Shown piece after piece: positions 1-9,274 of a stretch of 9,274 nt of DNA; position 1 is the first letter of the stretch, and each line of letters starts with the position of its first letter. Source of the DNA: a virus (taxonomy: Duplodnaviria; Heunggongvirae; Uroviricota; Caudoviricetes); the IMG/VR virus record IMGVR_UViG_2778261085_000007, positions 1-9,274 of that record. One strand, given 5' to 3'. The translations under genes and the position numbers were made by a program. The notes under the pieces were generated by a model, which worked only from the letters and a program-made list of their open reading frames with translations, had not been told where the DNA came from and ran no database searches.

Positions 1-147
1 CTGGTTAAGGATATCTTCAGTGGTAAATGCACGGAATGTTATTCCCGGACATATGAAGTGGATGCCACGGATGAAGAAATTTCTGTTGAATGTGATCTTA
101 ACGCGAATATGGCGGAGATTGTAACAGCCACGTTGTTGCCTGTTTAA
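1..147 (+). CDS. 3' end of an unidentified ORF (C-terminal 48 codons, LVKDIFSGKCTECYSRTYEVDATDEEISVECDLNANMAEIVTATLLPV*), 5' end outside window
   Basis: Frame 1 is open from position 1 to TAA at 145-147; contains a CxxC pair. No homolog recognised. Absent from the ORF track because its start is outside the window. Confidence 0.3.
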   Translation: MVKDIFSGKCTECYSRTYEVDATDEEISVECDLNANMAEIVTATLLPV

Positions 148-174
148 TGAATGACAGGTGTTCTCATTTGTACG

Positions 175-181
175 GGTCCTT
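175..181 (+). other. cosQ-like element (GGGTCCT) about 22 bp upstream of cosN
   Basis: Segment tacGGGTCCTtccgg at 172-185 matches the conserved motif near the lambda right end at the equivalent distance from cosN (from memory of lambda). Confidence 0.5.
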
Positions 182-202
182 CCGGAGAGGGGGATAACCA
201 CG

Positions 203-214
203 GGGCGGCAGCGG
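203..214 (+). other. cosN, predicted terminase nicking site / 12-nt cohesive end (gggcggcagcgg)
   Basis: acg|gggcggcagcgg|cgcggattttcgctatttatgaaaat aligns with lambda acg|GGGCGGCGACCT|CGCGGGTTTTCGCTATTTATGAAAAT; lies 188 bp upstream of the nu1 ATG, as in lambda. Exact nick positions are inferred by homology only. Confidence 0.65.
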
Positions 215-390
215 CGCGGATTTTCGCTATTTATGAAAATTTTTCGGGGAAAAGTGTGTCGGTACTTCTCGTGTGTAACTCATTGTTTTTTCATCAATCA
301 CATCCGTAAAAGGTCCGACATGAAAGTGCCCGAAAAAGACGTTTTTGAGCACTTCCATGTCGGACCCTGCATTTGATATGGAAATGTTTT
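215..390 (+). promoter_or_regulatory. cosB, terminase small-subunit binding region with three R-like elements
   Basis: Inverted repeat ggtccgacatg (312-322) / catgtcggacc (356-366), plus a related same-orientation copy gtgtcggtac (256-265). Spacing from cosN (+53, +109, +153) matches lambda R3, R2, R1. An A/T-rich T6-containing spacer at 280-300 sits where lambda has the IHF site I1. Confidence 0.55.
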
Positions 391-939
391 ATGAAGGTTA
401 ATAAAAAGAAGCTCGCGGAAATTTTCAACGTGGATCCACGAACGATTGAACGCTGGCAGTCTCAGGGGCTCTCTTGTGTCTCTGGTGGTAGTAAGGGGGT
501 TGAATCTGTATTTGATACCGCCATGGCAATTCAGTGGTATGCGCAGCGCGAAGCCGATATTGAAAACGAAAAACTCCGCAAAGAGACCGAGGATTTGCGT
601 GCGGCTGCGGAATCAGATTTACAACCCGGCACCATTGACTATGAGCGCTACCGACTCACAAAAGCACAGGCTGATGCACAGGAACTGAAAAATGCCCGCG
701 AAGAAGGGCTGGTACTGGAAACGGAATTGTTTACCTTCATTCTGCAACGTGTGGCACAGGAGATTTCGGGGATACTTGTACGTGTGCCGCTGACATTACA
801 GCGTAAATATCCGGATATTTCACCGTCACACCTTGATGTGGTGAAAACTGAAATCGCAAAAGCCTCCAACGTTGCAGCTAAAGCTGGTGAGAACGTAGGC
901 GGGTGGATTGATGATTTCAGACGCACAGAAGGCAGCTAA
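391..939 (+). CDS. nu1: Terminase small subunit (gpNu1-like), 182 aa
   Basis: [27 protein letters not shown]... aligns with lambda gpNu1 (MEVNKKQLADIFGASIRTIQNWQEQGM...) over its whole length, including the N-terminal winged-HTH. ATG at 391 chosen over the ORF-track TTG at 373 because it matches the lambda N-terminus. Confidence 0.92.
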
Positions 940-2827
940 TGCAGCCGGTGCGATAGCAACAGGGCTTGTATCTCTCAATATTCCGGTACCACTGACGACA
1001 GTTCAGTGGGCTGATAAGCATTATTATCTGCCAAAAGAGTCTTCATATACTCCCGGGCAATGGGAAACACTGCCGTTTCAGGTTGCCATCATGAACAGCA
1101 TGGGGAATGACCGGATCCGCACCGTTAATCTGATTAAATCGGCGCGTGTTGGTTACACCAAAATGCTGTTGGGGGTGGAGGCTTATTTTATTGAACACAA
1201 ATCCCGTAACAGCCTGCTTTTTCAGCCGACAGATTCTGCGGCAGAAGATTTTATGAAATCCCATGTCGAACCAACGATAAGAGACGTTCCTGTATTACTG
1301 GAGCTGGCTCCGTGGTTTGGCAGAAAACATCGGGACAACACGCTTACCCTGAAACGTTTCTCCTCCGGTGTGGGATTCTGGTGTCTGGGCGGAGCTGCTG
1401 CCAAAAACTACCGTGAAAAATCTGTGGATGTGGTCTGCTATGACGAACTCTCCTCGTTTGAACCGGATGTGGAAAAAGAAGGCTCACCAACCCTGCTTGG
1501 CGATAAGCGTATCGAAGGTTCGGTATGGCCTAAATCCATACGCGGCTCAACGCCCAAAATTAAAGGATTTTGCCAGATTGAAAAAGCCGCGAACGAATCT
1601 GCACATTTTATGCGGTTTTATGTGCCATGCCCTCATTGTGGTGAAGCCCAGTATCTGAAGTTTGGCGATGATGCGACAACCTTTGGCCTGAAATGGGAGA
1701 AGGGCAAGCCGGAGACGGTGTATTACCTGTGTGAACATAATGGCTGTGTGATCCGTCAGTCGGAACTTGACCAGACCGACGGGCGGTGGATTTGTGACAA
1801 TACCGGGATGTGGACGCGTGACGGTCTGACATTTTACAGCGCCGGTGATGAGGAAATCCCGCCACCGCGCTCAATCTCGTACCACATCTGGACGGCATAC
1901 AGCCCGTTCACCACCTGGGTACAGATTGTTTATGACTGGCTTGATGCACTGAAGGATCCGAATGGCGTCAAGACGTTCATTAACACCACGCTGGGGGAGC
2001 CTTATGAAGAGGCTGTGGCAGAAAAACTGAGCTTTGAGTTGTTGCTGGAAAAAGTCTGCCACTATGATGCGCAGGTTCCCCTGCGGGTGGTTTACCTGAC
2101 CGCAGGGATCGACTCTCAGAAAAACCGTTATGAGATTTATGTCTGGGGCTGGGCTCCTGGCGAAGAAGCTTTTCTGATTGACAAGCAGATCATCATGGGG
2201 AGACCGGAAGATGAGGACACCCTTAAACGCGTTGATGCCGTGATCCGGAAAAAATACCGTCATGCAGATGGCACTGAAATTTCCATTTCCCGCGTCTGCT
2301 GGGATACCGGTGGTATTGACCAGGACATTGTGTATCAGCGATCCAGAAAACACGGCACTTTTTTTGTGCTCCCCATCAAAGGGGCGTCGGTGTACGGCAA
2401 GCCGGTGATCACCATGCCAAAAAAGCGAAACCAGCGTGGTGTGTTTTTGTGTGAGGTGGGTTCCGATACCGTCAAGGAAATGCTGTATGCGCGTTTTGCC
2501 CTGCCGGTGGTATCTGCCAGTGAAGTCGCACCGTATACCTTCCGTTTTCCGGATAACCCTGACATTTTTTCTGATGTTGAAGCTAAACAACTCGTGGCAG
2601 AAGAGCTGGTTGAAAAAGTTGTGAACGGGCGGGTGAAACTCCAGTGGGATGCCAGAAAACGGCGTAATGAAGCCCTGGACTGTCTGGTGTATGCCTATGC
2701 AGCGCTGCGCATTTCCGTTCAGCGGTGGCAACTGGATCTGGATGCACTGGCCCGCGCCAGAAGAGATGAACAGGACGACGATGAAATGACTATTGAAGAA
2801 ATCGCGGCTGCTCTGAGTGGAGGATAA
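911..2827 (+). CDS. A: Terminase large subunit (gpA-like), 638 aa
   Basis: Full-length alignment with lambda gpA; Walker A segment KSARVGYTK (nt 1136-1162) at the same residue positions as lambda KSARVGYSK; conserved CPHCGE and [13 protein letters not shown] segments. Start overlaps the nu1 3' end as in lambda. ATG 911 preferred over TTG 908. Confidence 0.95.
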
Positions 2828-2853
2828 GTGATGATTTATACGCATGAAATGCT

Positions 2854-3045
2854 ATGCGATGCGATGCCCGCCGGGCGTTACATGAACTGATGATCGGACG
2901 TGCTGTGGTTTCCGTCAGCAAGGACGGGCGTCAGGTTCAGTATTCGCGGGCGACAATTGGTGAACTGCGTCAGTATATTGAAGAGCTGGAAAGTGCGCTG
3001 GGTGTATCCGGACGGCGTCGTGGCCCGGCAGGAGTGTGGCTGTGA
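2854..3045 (+). CDS. W: Head-tail joining / head completion protein (gpW-like), 63 aa as written
   Basis: ...ARRALHELMIGRAVVSVSKDGRQVQYSRATIGELRQYIEELESALGVSGRRRGPAGVWL aligns with lambda gpW (...[59 protein letters not shown]). The ATG at 2854 has no Shine-Dalgarno; an SD-linked ATG at 2831 is out of frame (see findings). Confidence 0.75.
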   Translation: MRCDARRALHELMIGRAVVSVSKDGRQVQYSRATIGELRQYIEELESALGVSGRRRGPAGVWL

Positions 3046-4613
3046 ACGGTGAACTGGTGGATATTCATGGGCAGCCTTTACGGCAAAGCATGGGATATTC
3101 TGGTGGTGGTTCCGGGTTCGGTGGGCAAATGGCAGAATGGCTGCCTGCACCGGAAAGTGCCGACGTGGCGCTCTTACCTTCCATTCATCTGGGTAACGCC
3201 CGCGCGGATGATCTGGTCCGTAACAACGGTATTGCATCGAATGCAGTGGAAATTCATAAGGATCATATTGTCGGGCACATGTTTCGTCTGAGTTACCGTC
3301 CCAACTGGCGCTGGCTGGGGATGTCGGAAGCAGATTCACATGCTTTTATTGAAGATGTTGAGGCGGCGTGGATGGAATACTGCGATCCGGTGTTTGGTAC
3401 GATGGATGTAGAAGGGCGTCGTTCGTTTACCGAATTCATTCGTGAAGGGGTGGGGGTCCATACGTTTAACGGTGAAATTTTTGTCCAGCCCGTATGGGAT
3501 GCGGAATCCACGTCATTATTCCGGACGAAATTCAAAACCATCAGCCCGAAGCGTGTCAGTACACCCGGTTATGGTACCGGCGATCGTTTTATGCGTGCCG
3601 GGGTGGAAATAAACCGACACGGAAAAGCGCTGGCCTACCATGTTCAGGATGATGACTGGCCCGGCTACGGTGTCAGTAAATGGACACGAATTACGGCAAC
3701 ACTGCCTTCCGGACGACCGGGAATGATCCATGTGTTTCAGCCACAGGAAGACGGGCAGACCCGCGGGGCCAACCAGTTTTATTCTGTAATGGAGCGTCTC
3801 AAGATGCTCGACACACTGCAGGCCACGCAACTGCAGTCGGCGGTGGTTCGCGCCATGTATGCCGCCACGATTGAATCCACACTGGATTCGGAAAAAGCGT
3901 TTGAATATATCGCCGGGGTGGGAGATGGAGGTAAAAATCCCCTGAACACCATCATGAAAGGCTACGCGCGTTATTACGCCACCAATACGGTAAAACTGGG
4001 CGGGGTCCGTATTCCGCATCTTTACCCGGGAGATTCACTGAATCTGCAGACAGCCCAGAATGCGGATAATGGTTTTTCTGAACTGGAAAAGGCGCTGTTA
4101 CGTTACATTGCTGCCGGACTGGGTGTGTCGTATGAGCAGCTTTCCCGGGATTATTCACAGGTCAGTTATTCCAGTGCCAGGGCATCCGCCAATGAGTCGT
4201 GGCGGTATTTTATGGGAAAACGAAAATTTGTGGCCAGTCGCCTGGCGTCACAGATGTTTGCCTGCTGGCTGGAGGAAGCCCTTATTCGTGGTGTGATCCG
4301 TCCGCCGAAATCCCGTTTCTCATTCTGGGAGGCTCGTTCCGGGTGGTGCCGTGCCGAGTGGATTGGTGCCGGTCGTATGGCGATTGATGGCCTTAAGGAA
4401 GTGCAGGAAGCGGTGATGCGCATTGAAGGCGGCCTGAGTACATACGAGAAAGAGCTGGCCCTGATGGGGGATGACTATCAGGAGATTTTCCGCCAGCAGC
4501 TACGGGAAACTCAGGAGCGACAGGCTGCCGGTCTTCCGCGTCCGGTCTGGATAAAGGACGCGTTTCAACAGCAGATCCGACAGACAACGGGAGAAAAAGG
4601 CGATGCGCTGTAA
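3042..4613 (+). CDS. B: Portal protein (gpB-like), about 523 aa
   Basis: Full-length alignment with lambda gpB (GGGSGFGG, NARADDLVRNNG, QTRGAN, LLRYIAAGLGVSYEQLSR, GRMAIDGLKEVQEAVM and more). GTG at 3042 overlaps the W stop as GTGA (lambda has ATGA at this junction) with AGGAG 7 nt upstream; in-frame GTG at 3036 is an alternative start. Confidence 0.93.
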   Translation: MNGELVDIHGQPLRQSMGYSGGGSGFGGQMAEWLPAPESADVALLPSIHLGNARADDLVRNNGIASNAVEIHKDHIVGHMFRLSYRPNWRWLGMSEADSHAFIEDVEAAWMEYCDPVFGTMDVEGRRSFTEFIREGVGVHTFNGEIFVQPVWDAESTSLFRTKFKTISPKRVSTPGYGTGDRFMRAGVEINRHGKALAYHVQDDDWPGYGVSKWTRITATLPSGRPGMIHVFQPQEDGQTRGANQFYSVMERLKMLDTLQATQLQSAVVRAMYAATIESTLDSEKAFEYIAGVGDGGKNPLNTIMKGYARYYATNTVKLGGVRIPHLYPGDSLNLQTAQNADNGFSELEKALLRYIAAGLGVSYEQLSRDYSQVSYSSARASANESWRYFMGKRKFVASRLASQMFACWLEEALIRGVIRPPKSRFSFWEARSGWCRAEWIGAGRMAIDGLKEVQEAVMRIEGGLSTYEKELALMGDDYQEIFRQQLRETQERQAAGLPRPVWIKDAFQQQIRQTTGEKGDAL

Positions 4614-6219
4614 TTTATCACATATTGCCGCGATGGCATTTAATGAGCCGCTTTTACTGGAACCCGCCTATGCGCGGGTTTTCTTTTGCGCACTGGGTAA
4701 GGAGATGGGGGCGGGCAGCCTTGCCGTTCCGCAGCAGGCCGTTCAGCTTGACGCCGATGGTATGCAGCTGGCGGTTACCGATTATATGACTGGTGGTCCG
4801 CGTCCGGTAAAGAGTTACCAGGTGAAAAATGGTATTGCCATTCTGCCGGTGAGCGGCACGCTGGTACATAAAATGGGTACCCTGCGGCCATATTCCGGTA
4901 TGACCGGTTATGACGGTCTGACTGCCCGTCTTAAGTCAGCGGTGAACGACCCGGATGTACGCGGCATTTTACTGGATATCGACAGTCCGGGCGGTCAGGC
5001 TGCCGGGGCGTTTGACTGTGCTGACATGATTTACCGTCTGCGGGAACAGAAGCCCGTGTGGGCGCTGTGTAATGACATGGCCTGTTCAGCCGCCATGTTG
5101 CTGGCGGCGGCCTGTACGCGTCGGCTGGTCACGCAGACGGCAAAAATTGGTTCGATTGGTGTGATGATGGCGCACACCAGTTACGAGAAACAACTGGCAC
5201 AGGAAGGCGTGGATATCACGCTGATTTACTCCGGGCAGCACAAGGTTGACGGCAACAGTATTCAGGCATTGCCGACAGGTGTGCGTGCGGATTTTCAGCG
5301 CCGTATTGATGAGGCCCGCCGGATGTTTGTCGACAAGGTGGCACTTTATACGGGGCTGAGTTCAGAGGTGGTGATGAATACCGAGGCTGCCGTTTATGAC
5401 GGTCAGGCAGGCATTGATACAGGCCTGGCTGATCAACTGATTAATGCTGCAGATGCCGTTGATGTAATGGTTTCTGCTCTGAACGACTCTGTTACACAGG
5501 AGAATACGATGACAACAAAAAATCTCACCGTTGCTGAAGCGGTGTCCCAGGAAAATCAGCGCGTGATGGGGATCCTGAATTGTCAGGAGGCGAAAGGACG
5601 CGAAAAACTGGCGCAGATGCTGGCAGGTCAGCAGGGAATGTCAGTTGAGCAGGCAAAAACATTACTGGCGGCAGCACCGGTTGCCGGTACTGACAGCACA
5701 GGCAATCAGATTGTGGCACTTCCGGAAGCAAAAGGACGTGAACAACTGGCACGGACGCTGGCTGAACAGCCGGGAATGACGGTGGAGCAGGCGAAAACGT
5801 TACTGGCAGCGGCACCGGTTGCCGGTGCGGCAAGTACCGGCGAGCAGATTATGGCACTTCCGGAAGCAAAAGGGCGTGAACAACTCGCACAGGCGCTGGC
5901 TGAACAGCCTGGAATGACGGTGGAACAGGCGAAAATGCTACTGGCAGCGGCACCGGAAACCGGTACGGCAAGTACCAGCGATCAAATTATTGCGTTGCCG
6001 GAAGCAAAAGGACGCGAAAAACTGGCACAGGCGCTGGCTGAACAACCGGGAATGACAGTGGAGCAGGCGAAAACGCTGCTGGCAGCTGCGCCATCAGTAT
6101 CGCAACCGTCACAGGTAACACTTTTTGAGCGCTTCATGGCACAGCATGCCGCCAGTGCCGTTTCCGGTGGCGGAACTGCCGGGAACGGGGAAGAAGAACT
6201 GCTGATGAGTATGCCGTAA
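4603..6219 (+). CDS. C: Prohead protease (gpC-like, S49/ClpP-fold family) with a repeat-expanded C-terminal scaffolding domain, 538 aa
   Basis: HIAAMAFNEPLLLEPAYARVFFCAL..., PVSGTL, PYSGMTGY, LTQTAKIGSIGVMMAH and LIYSGQHKVDGN align with lambda gpC. ATG 4603 is preceded by a purine-rich Shine-Dalgarno-like run (GGGAGA, 4589-4594) and overlaps the B stop by 11 nt. About 100 aa longer than lambda gpC because of the tandem repeat. Confidence 0.93.
   Translation: MRCNLSHIAAMAFNEPLLLEPAYARVFFCALGKEMGAGSLAVPQQAVQLDADGMQLAVTDYMTGGPRPVKSYQVKNGIAILPVSGTLVHKMGTLRPYSGMTGYDGLTARLKSAVNDPDVRGILLDIDSPGGQAAGAFDCADMIYRLREQKPVWALCNDMACSAAMLLAAACTRRLVTQTAKIGSIGVMMAHTSYEKQLAQEGVDITLIYSGQHKVDGNSIQALPTGVRADFQRRIDEARRMFVDKVALYTGLSSEVVMNTEAAVYDGQAGIDTGLADQLINAADAVDVMVSALNDSVTQENTMTTKNLTVAEAVSQENQRVMGILNCQEAKGREKLAQMLAGQQGMSVEQAKTLLAAAPVAGTDSTGNQIVALPEAKGREQLARTLAEQPGMTVEQAKTLLAAAPVAGAASTGEQIMALPEAKGREQLAQALAEQPGMTVEQAKMLLAAAPETGTASTSDQIIALPEAKGREKLAQALAEQPGMTVEQAKTLLAAAPSVSQPSQVTLFERFMAQHAASAVSGGGTAGNGEEELLMSMP
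5509..6219 (+). CDS. nu3: Scaffolding protein (gpNu3-like), nested in frame within the 3' part of C, 236 aa
   Basis: Internal in-frame ATG at 5509 preceded by AGGAG (5498-5502) with a 6-nt spacer; product MTTKNLTVAEAVSQENQRVMGILNCQEAKGRE... aligns with lambda Nu3 (MTKETQ...AAENSRIMGILNCEEAHGREEQ...). Lambda has the same nested in-frame arrangement. Confidence 0.7.
   Translation: MTTKNLTVAEAVSQENQRVMGILNCQEAKGREKLAQMLAGQQGMSVEQAKTLLAAAPVAGTDSTGNQIVALPEAKGREQLARTLAEQPGMTVEQAKTLLAAAPVAGAASTGEQIMALPEAKGREQLAQALAEQPGMTVEQAKMLLAAAPETGTASTSDQIIALPEAKGREKLAQALAEQPGMTVEQAKTLLAAAPSVSQPSQVTLFERFMAQHAASAVSGGGTAGNGEEELLMSMP
5587..6093 (+). repeat. In-frame tandem repeat, 138-bp unit (46 aa), 3 full copies plus 1 partial
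   Basis: Units start at 5587, 5725, 5863 and 6001 (partial, 93 bp). Each encodes EAKGRE(K/Q)LA..LA(E/G)Q(P/Q)GM(T/S)VEQAK(T/M)LLAAAP..G..ST..QI.ALP. Copies differ at many synonymous positions, so the duplication is not very recent. Confidence 0.9.
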
Positions 6220-6259
6220 GCGGGGATCCGTGATTCAGATAAATCAGGAGACTGAGAAA

Positions 6260-6595
6260 ATGATTAAAACCACCACAGAAAAGCGCGCGGACGGGCGCAT
6301 TTTTGCCGGAAGCGATCCGGTATATACCGCAACAGGTACCAGTGGTATCAGTGCTGCCACGCCTTCACTGACGCCACTGATGCTGGATGACGCCAGCGGA
6401 AAACTGGTGGCATGGGATGGTCAGAAAGCCGGAACGGCTGTGGGGGTGCTGGTACTGGCGCTGGCCGGGACCGAGCCCACACTGACGTACTACAAAAGCG
6501 GTACGTTTGCCACCGAATCGCTGGTCTGGCCGGATTCGGTGGATGCGGTGAAAAAAGCCAACGCGTTTGTGGGAAGTGCCATCAGCCACGCCTGA
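6260..6595 (+). CDS. D: Head decoration protein (gpD-like), 111 aa
   Basis: ...TPLMLDDASGKLVAWDGQKAGTAVGVL...LTYYKSGTFATESLVWP...ANAFVGSAIS aligns with lambda gpD (...[27 protein letters not shown]...LTFYKSGTFRYEDVLWP...RTAFAGTAIS). ATG 6260 with AGGAG at 6246-6250 preferred over the ORF-track GTG at 6230. Confidence 0.88.
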   Translation: MIKTTTEKRADGRIFAGSDPVYTATGTSGISAATPSLTPLMLDDASGKLVAWDGQKAGTAVGVLVLALAGTEPTLTYYKSGTFATESLVWPDSVDAVKKANAFVGSAISHA

Positions 6596-6617
6596 TGGTG
6601 AAGTGATTAACTGAAAA

Positions 6618-6649
6618 AACGGGTCGTGATGCGGCCCGTTTGTGTTTTT
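6618..6649 (+). terminator. Stem-loop plus U-tract between D and E (possible partial terminator or RNA-stability element)
   Basis: aacgggtcg (6618-6626), loop tgatg, cggcccgtt (6632-6640), then tgtgttttt. Lambda has a hairpin plus T-run at the same D-E junction. Confidence 0.4.
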
Positions 6650-6664
6650 AAAGGAAAGTCAATT

Positions 6665-7693
6665 ATGGGGTTATTTACCACGCGTCAGTTGCTCGGCTAC
6701 ACCGAGCAGAAAGTGAAATTCCGTGCGCTGTTTCTGGAGCTGTTTTTTCGTCGTACGGTCACTTTCCATACTCAGGAAGTGATGCTGGATAAAATCACCG
6801 GAAAAACACCGGTTGCGGCATATGTGTCTCCGGTTGTGTCAGGTAAGGTACTGCGCAGTCGTGGTGGTGAAACCCGCGTGTTACGCCCCGGCTATGTTAA
6901 ACCAAAACACCGGCTGGATTATCAGCAGGCGGTGGAGCGTCTTCCTGGGGAAGATCCGGCCCGTCTTAATGACCCGGCCTACCGTCGTCTGCGTATTCTG
7001 ACTGACAACCTGAAACAGGAAGAACAGGCGATTGTGCAGGTGGAAGAAATGCAGGCGGTAAGCGCTGTTCTTCAGGGTCGGTACACCATGAGCGGAGAAC
7101 AGTTTGAGACGGTGGAAGTGGATTTTGGACGTTCTGCCACCAATAACATTACGCAGGCAGAGGGACGCAAATGGTCAGAACAGAATTCTGACACCTTTGA
7201 TCCGACGCATGATCTGGATGCGTACTGCGATTTTGCTTCCGGTACCATCAATATTGCGATTATGGACGGTACTGTCTGGCGTATGCTGAACGGTTTTAAG
7301 CTGTTTCGTGAAAAACTGGATACCCGCCGTGGCTCAAAATCTGAACTGGAAACCGCGCTGAAAGATCTGGGTTCCGTGGTTTCTTTTAAAGGTTATTACG
7401 GTGATCTGGCCATCATGGTGGCGAAAACAACGTATGTTGATGAAAACGGGGATGAGCAGCGTTATCTGCCGGAAGGCACACTGATTCTTGGAAACACTCA
7501 GGTGGAGGGTGTCCGTTGTTATGGCGCAATCCAGGATAACCAGGCGCTGAGTGAAGGGATCACCTCTGCAATTCGTTATCCGAAACACTGGTTAGAGGTG
7601 GGGGACCCGGGGTGCGAATATACCATGACGCAGTCTGCGCCGTTGATGGTGTTGCCGGATCCGGACGCGTTTGTGGTGGTTCAGGTGAAATAA
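6665..7693 (+). CDS. E: Major capsid protein (gpE-like), 342 aa
   Basis: Full-length alignment with lambda gpE (YVSPVVSGKV-RSRGG, PGYVKPKH, DPAYRR, VEEMQAVSAVL, KLDTRRGS-SELETA-KDLG, GNTQ, TMTQSAPLM). ATG 6665 with AAGGAAAG upstream; the ORF-track start at 6626 adds a non-homologous leader. Confidence 0.95.
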   Translation: MGLFTTRQLLGYTEQKVKFRALFLELFFRRTVTFHTQEVMLDKITGKTPVAAYVSPVVSGKVLRSRGGETRVLRPGYVKPKHRLDYQQAVERLPGEDPARLNDPAYRRLRILTDNLKQEEQAIVQVEEMQAVSAVLQGRYTMSGEQFETVEVDFGRSATNNITQAEGRKWSEQNSDTFDPTHDLDAYCDFASGTINIAIMDGTVWRMLNGFKLFREKLDTRRGSKSELETALKDLGSVVSFKGYYGDLAIMVAKTTYVDENGDEQRYLPEGTLILGNTQVEGVRCYGAIQDNQALSEGITSAIRYPKHWLEVGDPGCEYTMTQSAPLMVLPDPDAFVVVQVK

Positions 7694-7697
7694 GGTC

Positions 7698-7724
7698 AGG
7701 CGGGATATTCCCGCCTTTTTCTTT
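7698..7724 (+). terminator. Stem-loop plus T-tract just downstream of E (intrinsic-terminator-like)
   Basis: aggcggg (7698-7704), loop atatt, cccgcct (7710-7716), then ttttcttt. Begins 5 nt after the E stop codon. Confidence 0.45.
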
Positions 7725-7743
7725 ATCGAACAGGAGAGATGTG

Positions 7744-8124
7744 ATGACAAAAGAAGAAATAACAGCGCGTCTTCAGGATCTGGCGGCAGTACTCGGGCGC
7801 GATGCCGATATTTCAGGCTCTAAAGCTGATCTTGAACAACGCCTGGCGGAGTGGGAAGAAGAATTAAGTGATAGTTCAGACGGCCTGTATAAGGATGATG
7901 AAGAACCACAACAAAAAAACGAAACACGATCCGAACGTGGGGAGAGTGAGAACCGAAATTCTGTGGATATGGTCATGGTCAAAGCTGTGGTGATGTTACA
8001 TGTCAATGCACTCCACGCCACACGGGATAACCCCGTGGCATTTGTACGTCCGGGAGAAGTGTTTCGTGTATCTGCCGTGGTGGCAGCCAGCATGGCAGAA
8101 AGTGGCCTCGTGAAAATGTGTTGA
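7744..8124 (+). CDS. FI: DNA-packaging / head assembly protein (gpFI-like), 126 aa
   Basis: MTKEEITARLQDL... and C-terminal ...LHVNALHATRDNPVAFVRPGEVFRVSAVVAASMAESGL align with lambda gpFI (MTKDELIARLRSL... / ...LHTDALHATRDEPVAFVLPGTAFRVSAGVAAEMTERGL). AGGAG at 7732-7736, 7 nt before ATG 7744; the ORF-track start at 7612 lies inside E. Confidence 0.88.
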   Translation: MTKEEITARLQDLAAVLGRDADISGSKADLEQRLAEWEEELSDSSDGLYKDDEEPQQKNETRSERGESENRNSVDMVMVKAVVMLHVNALHATRDNPVAFVRPGEVFRVSAVVAASMAESGLVKMC

Positions 8125-8137
8125 ATGTGGGGGAAAG

Positions 8138-8512
8138 GTGGCAGATTTCTATAATCCGTTTGATGCCGCCGTCGCCATGGCTGACGAGGTCATTCTTTGT
8201 CATATGGGGATTACGGCGGTAATTACGTCCGGTCAGCTTGAAGGAAAAACACTCAGGGGTGTTTTTGATGATCCTGAAAAAATTTCGTTCGTTGCCGGAG
8301 GAGTACGGTTTGAAGATTCTTCACCGTCTTTGTTTGTGAAAACAGCAGATATTACGGGACTGCGCCGTCTGGATACGCTGGAGGTTGGCGGGGATCTTTT
8401 TCGGGTGGATCGCATTACTCCGGACGACGGGGGATGCTGTTATATCCGTCTGCAACGGTGTGACAGTTCCCGGGGGGATATCAGTACAGGGCGATATTAT
8501 GAAAGGTCTTGA
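8138..8512 (+). CDS. FII: Head-tail connector / head completion protein (gpFII-like), 124 aa
   Basis: MADFYNPFDAAVAMADE...RGVFDDPEKIS...SSPSLFVKT...RVDRITPDDGG aligns with lambda gpFII (MADFDNLFDAAIARADE...RGVFDDPENIS...SSPSLFVRT...WVDRVSPDDGG). GTG start, as in lambda. Confidence 0.88.
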   Translation: MADFYNPFDAAVAMADEVILCHMGITAVITSGQLEGKTLRGVFDDPEKISFVAGGVRFEDSSPSLFVKTADITGLRRLDTLEVGGDLFRVDRITPDDGGCCYIRLQRCDSSRGDISTGRYYERS

Positions 8513-9089
8513 AAACGCCATCCGCAATCTGAACAGCCTTGATACCCGTATGGTGCCACAGGCCAGCGCCTGGGCAATAAATCGTGTGGCACAGAAAGCC
8601 ATTTCTCAGGCGACCCGACAGGTTGCCCACGATACCGTTGCCGGTGATAACCAGGTGAAGGGGATCCCCCTGAAACTGGTCAGGGGGCGCGTCAGAATGC
8701 TGAGCGCCAGCCCTGCCGGAAAAATGTATGCCCGGATCCGCGTTAACCGCGGCAATCTTCCCGCCATCAAACTGAGCACAACGCGAAGGCGTGCCGGTGA
8801 CGGGCTGAGGGTGGGGAAATATTTTTTCCAGGGCGCGTTTATCCGGCAACTGGCGAATGGTCGCTGGCATGTTCTGAAACGCCTTCCTGAAGCGCGTTTT
8901 GCAACAGGGCGTGACCATCAGGGCAGGCCGAAAAAAAATCGCCTGCCTGTGGCGGTTGTGAAAATCCCGCTGGCCGGAGCGCTGACACAGGCATTTGAGG
9001 ATGCCCGTAAAAGCGTCATTGATAACGAGATGCCGAAACAACTGGGGTATGCCCTGAAACAACAACTGAGGTCATATCTGAACCTATGA
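8499..9089 (+). CDS. Z: Tail completion protein (gpZ-like), 196 aa
   Basis: MKGLENAIRNLNSLD..., INRVAQKAISQ..., RIRVNRGNLPAIKL, GAFIRQLANGRWHV, VVKIPLAGALTQAF and LGYALKQQLR align with lambda gpZ (MAIKGLEQAVENLS..., INRVASSAISQ, RIKVNRGDLPVIKL, GAFIQQLKNGRWHV, VVKIPMAVPLTTAF, LGYALQHQLR). Start overlaps the FII 3' end by 14 nt. Confidence 0.85.
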   Translation: MKGLENAIRNLNSLDTRMVPQASAWAINRVAQKAISQATRQVAHDTVAGDNQVKGIPLKLVRGRVRMLSASPAGKMYARIRVNRGNLPAIKLSTTRRRAGDGLRVGKYFFQGAFIRQLANGRWHVLKRLPEARFATGRDHQGRPKKNRLPVAVVKIPLAGALTQAFEDARKSVIDNEMPKQLGYALKQQLRSYLNL

Positions 9090-9274
9090 ACCGACACACA
9101 CAAATTCGTCAGGCCGTATTGTCGCGCCTGAAAACAACGTGCGGGGAAGATACCGTTTTGTTTGACGGTCTTCCTGCCTTTATTGATGCACAGGAGTTGC
9201 CTGCCGTGGCGGTGTGGCTGAGTGATGCTCAGTACACCGGAAAAATGACGGATGAAGATGACTGGCAGGCTGTT
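9086..9274 (+). CDS. U: Tail terminator protein (gpU-like), N-terminal 63 codons; continues past the window end
   Basis: MNRHTQIRQAVLSRL...FDGLPAF...LPAVAVWLSDAQYTG...DDWQA aligns with lambda gpU (MKHTELRAAVLDAL...FDGRPAV...FPAVAVYLTGAEYTG...DTWQA). ATG 9086 overlaps the Z stop as ATGA. Absent from the ORF track because there is no stop within the window. Confidence 0.85.
   Translation, partial: MNRHTQIRQAVLSRLKTTCGEDTVLFDGLPAFIDAQELPAVAVWLSDAQYTGKMTDEDDWQAV

Follow-up and report, generated by a model that had tools for sequence, protein, structure and literature searches.

The terminase-portal junction and its relatives

The window analyzed here is a 9,274-nucleotide (nt) stretch of DNA, positions 1 to 9,274 of the IMG/VR virus record IMGVR_UViG_2778261085_000007 (Caudoviricetes). 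Its gene content marks it as the head module, from the left arm, of a lambda-like E. coli prophage of the lambda/phage-21 type. The region of interest extends from 2740 to 3140 and covers the end of gene A, gene W and the start of gene B, all encoded on the plus strand. Gene A (908..2827) encodes a large terminase (gpA) of 639 amino acids (aa), assigned from its open reading frame (ORF), Pfam matches and homology. Gene W (2831/2854 to 3045) is assigned from a match to PF02831, and gene B (3042..4613) encodes a portal protein (gpB) of 523 aa, assigned from PF05136 and homology. An initial annotation of this DNA had proposed that the C-terminal tail of gpA and the N-terminus of gpB diverge from lambda at the same junction and may constitute a co-evolving interface between terminase and portal.

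The annotated phages nearest to the window are phage 21 and Salmonella Gifsy-1, with ~77% nucleotide identity across the A-B region and amino acid identities of 82–83% for A and 72–75% for B. Lambda is more distant (64% for A, 62% for B), and the description of both proteins as aligning closely with lambda was therefore overstated. Phage 21 and Gifsy-1 (genes 1-2-3-4-5 / Nu1-A-W-B-C) have a gene order identical to that of the window, and they share with it the 21-type portal signatures LVDVHG-PLRES and FTEFIREG and a long C/Nu3 gene. However, the tail, W and the clip loop of the portal are each of a distinct type, W is frameshifted in the window, and C/Nu3 of the window contains a 138-bp repeat in 3.6 copies. 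Positions 2400–3500 are matched at ≥95% identity by 24 of 5,426 complete E. coli genomes, mostly from bovine isolates.

A comparison with lambda at the protein level confirms that both segments are less similar than the remainder of their proteins. Identity to lambda falls to 37% over the last 30 aa of gpA, compared with 66% over the rest of gpA, and to 25% over the first 20 aa of gpB, compared with 64% over the rest of gpB. The same holds for phage 21 and Gifsy-1, where the gpA tail shows 47–50% identity (84–85% in the remainder of the protein) and the gpB N-terminus 40–55% (73–76% in the remainder). At the DNA level there is a single unbroken, sharp-edged trough from ~2740 to 3100, with 48–62% identity compared with 70–83% in the flanks. 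The two protein segments are not adjacent, as gene W, which the initial annotation did not mention, intervenes between them.

The two segments also differ in how far they stand out from their own proteins. The gpA tail is unusual, with just 1–4% of 25-aa windows along the body of gpA equally divergent. The gpB N-terminus is not, as 7–12% of 25-aa windows are equally low. Comparably deep troughs are found at A1–25, A~365, A~521–545, B~97, B~283–292 and the B C-terminus. The first of these, the gpA N-terminus (908–985, aa 1–25), which is the known TerS-binding region, is divergent with respect to lambda and Gifsy-1, but not to phage 21.

The C-terminal tail of the large terminase

A Pfam search of the window gpA identifies a GpA ATPase domain (PF05876, aa 47–294, E=1.5e-54) followed by a GpA endonuclease domain (PF20454, aa 323–603, E=1.2e-68). 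Beyond the end of the nuclease domain the protein continues for 36 residues, which include two elements of different character. The first is a variable acidic linker (aa 612–627, 16 aa; 2741..2788, plus strand) that lies outside any Pfam domain and comes after a conserved RWQLDL at the end of the last helix. The second is a putative portal-binding motif (aa 628–639; 2789..2824, plus strand), assigned from the family consensus and from homology to lambda.

To describe the tail across the family, we drew A-W-B(-C) loci from genomes as well as from IMG/VR. Among the matches listed 358 are complete, of which 258 are distinct, and IMG/VR holds more than 1,500 further candidate stretches beyond the sampled loci. 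The 358 loci contain 77 distinct tails. The linker ranges from 14 to 21 aa, is variable in sequence and has the highest entropy in the C-terminal half of A. In 75 of the 77 tails, including that of lambda, it leads into the consensus [TS]-L-[AE]-[DE]-[LYIM]-A-x-x-L-[SGA]-G, which is followed by an extension of 0–8 aa. Position 9 of the motif is leucine in 75/75 and position 6 is alanine in 70/75. The low identity of the tail comes from differences in the linker, in the extension and at a small number of motif positions. The divergence reported for the tail is therefore real but not uniform, as the last 11–12 residues hold a motif that is kept nearly throughout the family.

The terminal motif of lambda gpA, TLADYARALSG-EDE (TLADYARALSGEDE), is homologous to that of the window, and the two proteins share gene, position and architecture (nuclease domain, RWQLDL helix end, variable linker and terminal motif). 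The window tail differs in its strongly acidic linker (DEQDDDE) and in having nothing beyond SGG, where the lambda tail goes on with EDE and that of phage 21 with VNGYSR. The difference between lambda and phage 21 in the gpA tail is how the specificity domain was first defined. In lambda this domain is said to comprise the last ~32 aa of gpA, in work ascribed to Frackman et al. in 1984, to Sippy & Feiss in 1992 and to Yeo & Feiss in 1995.

The part of the initial annotation that cast the gpA tail as a prohead- or portal-docking element agrees with what was already established for lambda (PMC4856287, PMC9026076, PMC2366019). The lambda gpA C-terminus is a specificity domain for prohead and portal binding, and the Aam42 protein, which is without the last five residues, cannot dock (PMC4856287). 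In one account, lambda TerL has a 'portal binding tether' at its end (PMC9026076), and the pair 'A (C-term) - B' is listed among the lambda interactions (PMC3224144, table 2). In addition, a portal mutation that suppresses a gpA prohead-binding mutation is attributed to Yeo & Feiss 1995 in a later citation (PMC2366019). Phage-specific binding of the tail to proheads or portal is known only from genetic and biochemical work on lambda and phage 21. By homology with lambda gpA, the window tail would dock the terminase on the prohead portal with phage-specific specificity.

The 3' end of gene A is frameshifted or truncated in several related prophages (L047, L255, L277, L302, L344 and L379), with loss of the portal-binding tail. 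These prophages are probably decaying.

The ratio of nonsynonymous to synonymous substitution (dN/dS) was computed over 20 sequences from the family to which the window belongs. It is below 0.2 in all segments, so that purifying selection acts throughout, and no segment shows any sign of positive selection in this set. The highest values are those of the tail (0.16), the B C-terminus (0.14) and A530–547 (0.13). The B N-terminus (0.075) is similar to a variable segment in the portal clip (0.074) and to other variable parts of the portal. The pattern is that of linkers, termini and surface loops under loosened constraint and not that of an arms race. A530–547 (~2495–2550), with an entropy of 1.84, is a second hypervariable patch in gpA and lies inside the nuclease domain.

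The start of the portal gene and its N-terminal peptide

The portal domain (PF05136, E=2.1e-95) covers aa 27–393 of gpB, and aa 12–519 align with the lambda gpB chains of PDB 8k38 and related entries at 62% identity (E=1.2e-213). In a 99%-identical E. coli prophage the portal start given by PGAP/RefSeq is an internal ATG (position 3090 in the window, 2186 in L408), which drops 16 upstream codons. The initial annotation had placed the start at GTG 3042 (MNGELV...), and several features indicate that this is the true start. A Shine-Dalgarno sequence, AGGAG (3030..3034, plus strand), is located 7 nt upstream of the GTG and is conserved in family members. The GTG overlaps the W stop codon (GTGA) in a manner equivalent to the ATGA of lambda, and all 358 extracted loci have an (A/G/T)TGA overlap, which the filter used in their selection ensured in part. 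One relative (L086) has ATG at the position of GTG 3042, and another (L079) is without the internal methionine. Finally, the 15 codons upstream of the internal ATG have a dN/dS of 0.075 at a synonymous divergence (pS) of 0.37. This constraint, together with clear homology to the N-terminus of phage 21, argues that the upstream codons are coding.

The divergent part of the gpB N-terminus is residues 1–17 (MNGELVDIHGQPLRQSM; 3042..3092, plus strand), which align with lambda aa 1–22 and which we predict to be a portal propeptide. Conservation sets in abruptly at GYSGGGSGFGGQ (3093..3128, plus strand), which from the alignment is the predicted start of the mature portal. This motif, GYxGGGxGFGGQ, is invariant or nearly so in four reference portals and in the representatives. 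A search for G[YF]xGG succeeded in 259 of the 358 loci, and in these the motif is preceded by a segment of 17–22 aa.

The corresponding peptide of lambda is annotated in RefSeq as a leader peptide of aa 1–22. Biochemically it has been described both as '22 aa removed from B N-term' and as a 21-amino-acid peptide removed proteolytically (PMC3224144). In the model of the lambda virion gpB residues 1–23 are absent, and residue 24 opens the wing domain (PMC10721106). The window resembles the lambda gpB to gpB* system, in which 20–22 N-terminal residues are lost as the prohead matures, in having an N-terminal segment upstream of GYxGGGxGFGGQ and an S49 protease gene (C) directly downstream of the portal gene. 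The predicted propeptide is 17 aa in the window and 22 aa in lambda, and the common part is only PLR(E/Q)x near the cleavage site. From the precedent of lambda, we infer that the 17 N-terminal residues of the window portal are cleaved by the head protease during prohead maturation. Since lambda removes this peptide during head assembly, the portal N-terminus is unlikely to be a contact of the terminase.

Gene W

The match of gpW, the head-tail adaptor Ad1, to PF02831 (E=2.3e-24) covers only profile positions 8–65 of 66. W is 44–48% identical to its counterparts in lambda, phage 21 and Gifsy-1 and is the least conserved of A, W and B. In intact relatives W starts at an ATG equivalent to 2831, 4 nt past the A stop codon, and encodes 69 aa. 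No intact frame runs from the native start in the window, where the frame stops at 2888–2890 after 19 codons. The cause is a 5-bp tandem duplication (ATGCG-ATGCG; 2854..2863, plus strand) that frameshifts W after codon 9. What remains is a 63-aa frame (2854–3045) whose ATG is created inside the duplication and which has no obvious Shine-Dalgarno sequence.

The duplication is absent from an alignment of five relatives (L063, L071, L073, L079 and L086). Alignments of the best E. coli matches with the 1101-nt query span 1096 nt, which suggests that these matches too are without it, and in a 99%-identical E. coli prophage RefSeq gives a 69-aa 'phage head-tail joining protein'. The frameshifted W reflects either a sequencing error or a defective prophage whose heads would be unable to acquire tails.

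The last 15 aa of gpW (LGVSGRRRGPAGVWL; 2998..3042, plus strand) constitute the C-arm, which by homology to lambda would be the part that binds the portal clip. In lambda the gpW C-arm (aa 55–68) joins the β-sheet of the gpB clip (PMC10721106). The ending of the C-arm tracks the portal type, with GV[RGWM]L accompanying 21/window-type portals and GFY[VA] accompanying lambda-type portals. The gene itself can be mosaic. The 5' two-thirds of Gifsy-1 W are lambda-like, with 80–85% nucleotide identity compared with 62–68% in the flanks (L003 3783–3986 vs L001 2633–2839), and residues 11–50 are ~92% identical to lambda at the amino acid level when compared by eye. A and B of Gifsy-1 are 21-like.

Near the overlap of W and B (3035–3055) the window shows two G-to-T differences from an otherwise identical relative (L063). 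One changes the penultimate residue of W from glycine to tryptophan (GVGL to GVWL), and the other is synonymous in B.

The portal clip

The most variable part of the portal is distant from its N-terminus. Among 89 distinct relatives variability peaks at aa 286–315, with an entropy of 1.5–1.7 bits compared with 1.1 bits at the N-terminus. The segment is also the deepest identity trough of the portal against all three references. Alignment to 8k38 maps this variable segment of the clip (aa 283–318; 3888..3995, plus strand) to lambda aa 288–324.

The lambda clip comprises aa 280–342 with a disordered loop at 303–319, and it binds the C-arm of the adaptor gpW (PMC10721106). The clip is a general docking site for the large terminase in HK97, T4 and other phages (PMC10359639, PMC7617512). 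In HK97, T4, SPP1 and, through gpW, lambda, it is a dock shared first by the large terminase and then by the adaptor. The window clip maps onto lambda clip aa 280–342 at 62% portal identity, and aa 283–318 are a candidate specificity surface for terminase and adaptor. By analogy with these phages, the terminase tail most likely contacts the exposed clip domain and not the portal N-terminus.

Covariation of the terminase tail with the portal

Lambda-family head modules form two deep supergroups, one lambda-like and one 21/Gifsy/window-like, between which portal propeptide type, wing motif, Nu3 C-terminus type and C length co-segregate. Lambda-like lineages have a B N-terminus of ...LLGPDG.T.LREYA, a wing of ...TFTMMIREG and a C protein of ~430–450 aa. 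In 21/Gifsy/window-like lineages these are ...LVDVHG-PLRES, ...FTEFIREG and ~490–540 aa, respectively.

We tested for covariation with 50–59 representatives at more than 3% divergence, four RFQI-type tails included. The pooled test was a partial Mantel test with quadratic terms that controls for divergence of the protein bodies, and an empirical background was provided by 1,713 pairs of non-adjacent windows. Pooled, the tail does not covary with the B N-terminus: partial r lies between -0.13 and -0.05 without reaching significance, and the r of -0.07 that was set against the background falls at its 30th percentile. The tail does covary with the clip (partial r 0.24–0.27, p = 0.0002; r 0.24–0.25, 96–98th percentile). 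This is on par with the W C-arm and the clip, a structurally proven contact (partial r 0.23, p = 0.0002; r 0.25, 96–98th percentile), and the tail and the W C-arm are themselves correlated (partial r 0.17, p = 0.0002). In an unbiased 20-aa scan the portal peak of the tail falls at B 291–310, with B 1–20 at -0.04. In addition, 24 representative pairs have a similar B N-terminus and tails that differ by at least 45%. No pair among the representatives separates the tail from the clip in either direction. Fifteen apparent recombinant pairs with the same clip and different tails proved to be frameshifted or truncated gpA 3' ends (L255, L277, L302, L344 and L379), and they were removed.

Several observations weaken the case for the clip, and against the N-terminus, as the partner of the tail. 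Within the lambda-like group (n=31) the correlation of tail and clip drops to r 0.14 (80th percentile), and within the 21/window-like group (n=20) to 0.10 (67th percentile). In the former the correlation of the tail with the B N-terminus (r 0.21, 90th percentile) is nominally higher than that with the clip; in the latter it is 0.06 (59th percentile). The pooled signal between tail and clip is largely one deep split between lambda-like and 21-like phages, and with the tail as anchor, the windows C 281–310 and A 570–590 match the score of the clip. The method is also low in power, as the proven contact of W C-arm and clip is undetectable within lineages (0.14, 81st percentile, in the lambda-like group and 0.09, 65th percentile, in the 21/window-like group). 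A search by sequence detected no homologue of gpA in the PDB. To our knowledge no structure of a terminase-portal complex has been solved for the lambda family. Some lambda gpB may also stay uncleaved in proheads.

The within-lineage tests and the empirical backgrounds thus reduce the covariation of tail and clip, which might have appeared decisive, to suggestive only. Covariation of gpA C-termini with gpB N-termini, the check proposed with the initial annotation, is nil when the aligned related loci are pooled and unremarkable within lineages. The analysis gives no support for coupling of the tail to the N-terminus, coupling of the tail to the clip is not established by it either, and its power is low. 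The case against the N-terminus as a partner of the terminase therefore comes mainly from the biochemistry and structure of lambda. As far as the analysis extends, the two segments vary independently, and the lambda literature argues against a portal N-terminus exposed to the terminase; these are the two results that were named with the initial annotation as refuting it.

Interpretation of the divergent region

We regard it as probable that 2740–3140 consists of three adjacent, functionally separate and fast-evolving elements, and that the tail contacts the portal clip and not the portal N-terminus. The first element would be a C-terminal tether of gpA, composed of a variable acidic linker and a short conserved motif, that docks the terminase on the portal. 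The second is the gene W adaptor, frameshifted in the window, as the later occupant of the portal clip. The third is the 17 N-terminal residues of the portal, the counterpart of the peptide cut from lambda gpB by the head protease, which evolve at a moderate rate like other variable portal segments. The gene identities, the divergence profile, the anatomy of the tail, the frameshift in W, the homology of the B N-terminus to the lambda leader peptide and the absence of covariation between tail and N-terminus are established here, whereas cleavage of the propeptide in this phage and contact of tail and clip are extrapolated from lambda and other phages. The clip loop is a plausible partner of the tail by analogy with other phages. 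A more specific proposal is that a three-way specificity module is made up of the gpW C-arm, the disordered loop of the clip (aa 283–318) and those positions of the tail that vary. This is tentative, and we would sooner expect it to be wrong than right.

A different role for the portal N-terminus would lie in head assembly, where it would co-evolve with both the portal wing and the Nu3 scaffold, to be discarded once assembly is complete. Nu3 is needed for the incorporation of gpB into the procapsid (PMC3224144 table 2), and in the pooled data the B N-terminus is strongly correlated with the wing at aa 111–140 (r = 0.37–0.48, 99.9th percentile) and with the Nu3 C-terminus (r = 0.31–0.36, 99.4th percentile). 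However, these correlations stem from the one deep bipartition of lambda-like and 21-like phages, which is one evolutionary event and not repeated co-variation. Within groups the Nu3 signal vanishes (0.01 and -0.26) and the wing gives 0.07 and 0.37. We therefore rejected the pooled scan as a demonstration of such co-evolution, and consider the idea itself unlikely.

A recombinational origin appears more doubtful still. In this reading ~2740–3100, from the A tail through W to the B N-terminus, would have entered as a single cassette from a more distant lambdoid phage. The contiguous, sharp-edged trough in DNA identity would fit such a cassette, joints do occur inside W, as the lambda-like 5' part of Gifsy-1 W demonstrates, and within the family synonymous divergence is somewhat raised in A548–611 and B3–90. 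However, entropy identifies the same segments as variable in every lineage examined, so that rate heterogeneity is sufficient to account for the trough. The nearest out-group relatives (L004, from Providencia, and L090) have a window-type tail, W and B N-terminus with divergence there in proportion to that of the gene bodies, and no lineage was found that is closer to the window in the block than in the flanks.

Least probable is the co-evolving interface that the initial annotation envisaged, in which the gpA tail touches the ~20 N-terminal residues of the portal during docking: both segments are less conserved than their own proteins, their coding segments are ~215 nt apart and hence co-inherited, and the lambda-like correlation of 0.21 has a permutation p of 0.0007, yet that correlation reaches only the 90th percentile, the lambda peptide is removed and the portal chain in the virion, which begins in the wing, is without it, the clip docks the terminase in related systems, covariation is nil in the pooled data and weak in the window's own lineage, the 24 pairs combine a common B N-terminus with different tails, and the N-terminus is as variable as four or five other portal segments and no more so.

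Other features of the head module

The gene order of the window is Nu1-A-W-B-C-D-E-FI-FII-Z, with only the start of Z included. Nu1 (373–939) and C/Nu3 (4603–6219) were taken from the ORF listing, and Pfam identifies the latter as an S49 peptidase. In the scaffold part of C/Nu3 (aa ~329–495; 5586–6086) there is a tandem 138-bp (46-aa) unit, repeated 3.6 times, that contains ...EAKGREQLAQ.LAEQPGMTVEQAKTLLAAAP... The repeats give a C protein of 538 aa compared with 422–512 aa in other lineages, and the number of repeats may lead to variation in scaffold length.

During collection of the related loci we also identified portal loci identical to lambda on low-coverage contigs, some of ~48.5 kb, in assemblies of unrelated bacteria. 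These bacteria include Pseudomonas, Shewanella, Oceanobacillus, Chromatium and Kitasatospora (L018, L019, L021, L022, L024, L025, L038, L046 and others). These contigs are almost certainly contamination of public assemblies by lambda control DNA.

Conclusions

The divergence at the end of A and the start of B is real but is ordinary rate heterogeneity in a known module and not a new kind of system. That the gpA C-terminus is a phage-specific prohead-docking domain is a textbook result, 40 years old. What is added here is that the tail divides into a linker that varies and an 11-residue motif that is conserved across the family. In close relatives automated annotation leaves out the portal propeptide, and with its frameshifted W this copy of the prophage may not be able to attach tails to its heads. 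For work with chimeras or AlphaFold-Multimer, the clip loop, as the real hypervariable surface of the portal, is a better target than the N-terminus. If the three-way module proposed above is correct, terminase and adaptor would be rivals for this hypervariable surface of the clip and would be forced to diversify in step, which would explain why tail and clip types are not separated in the sampled phages despite joints within W.

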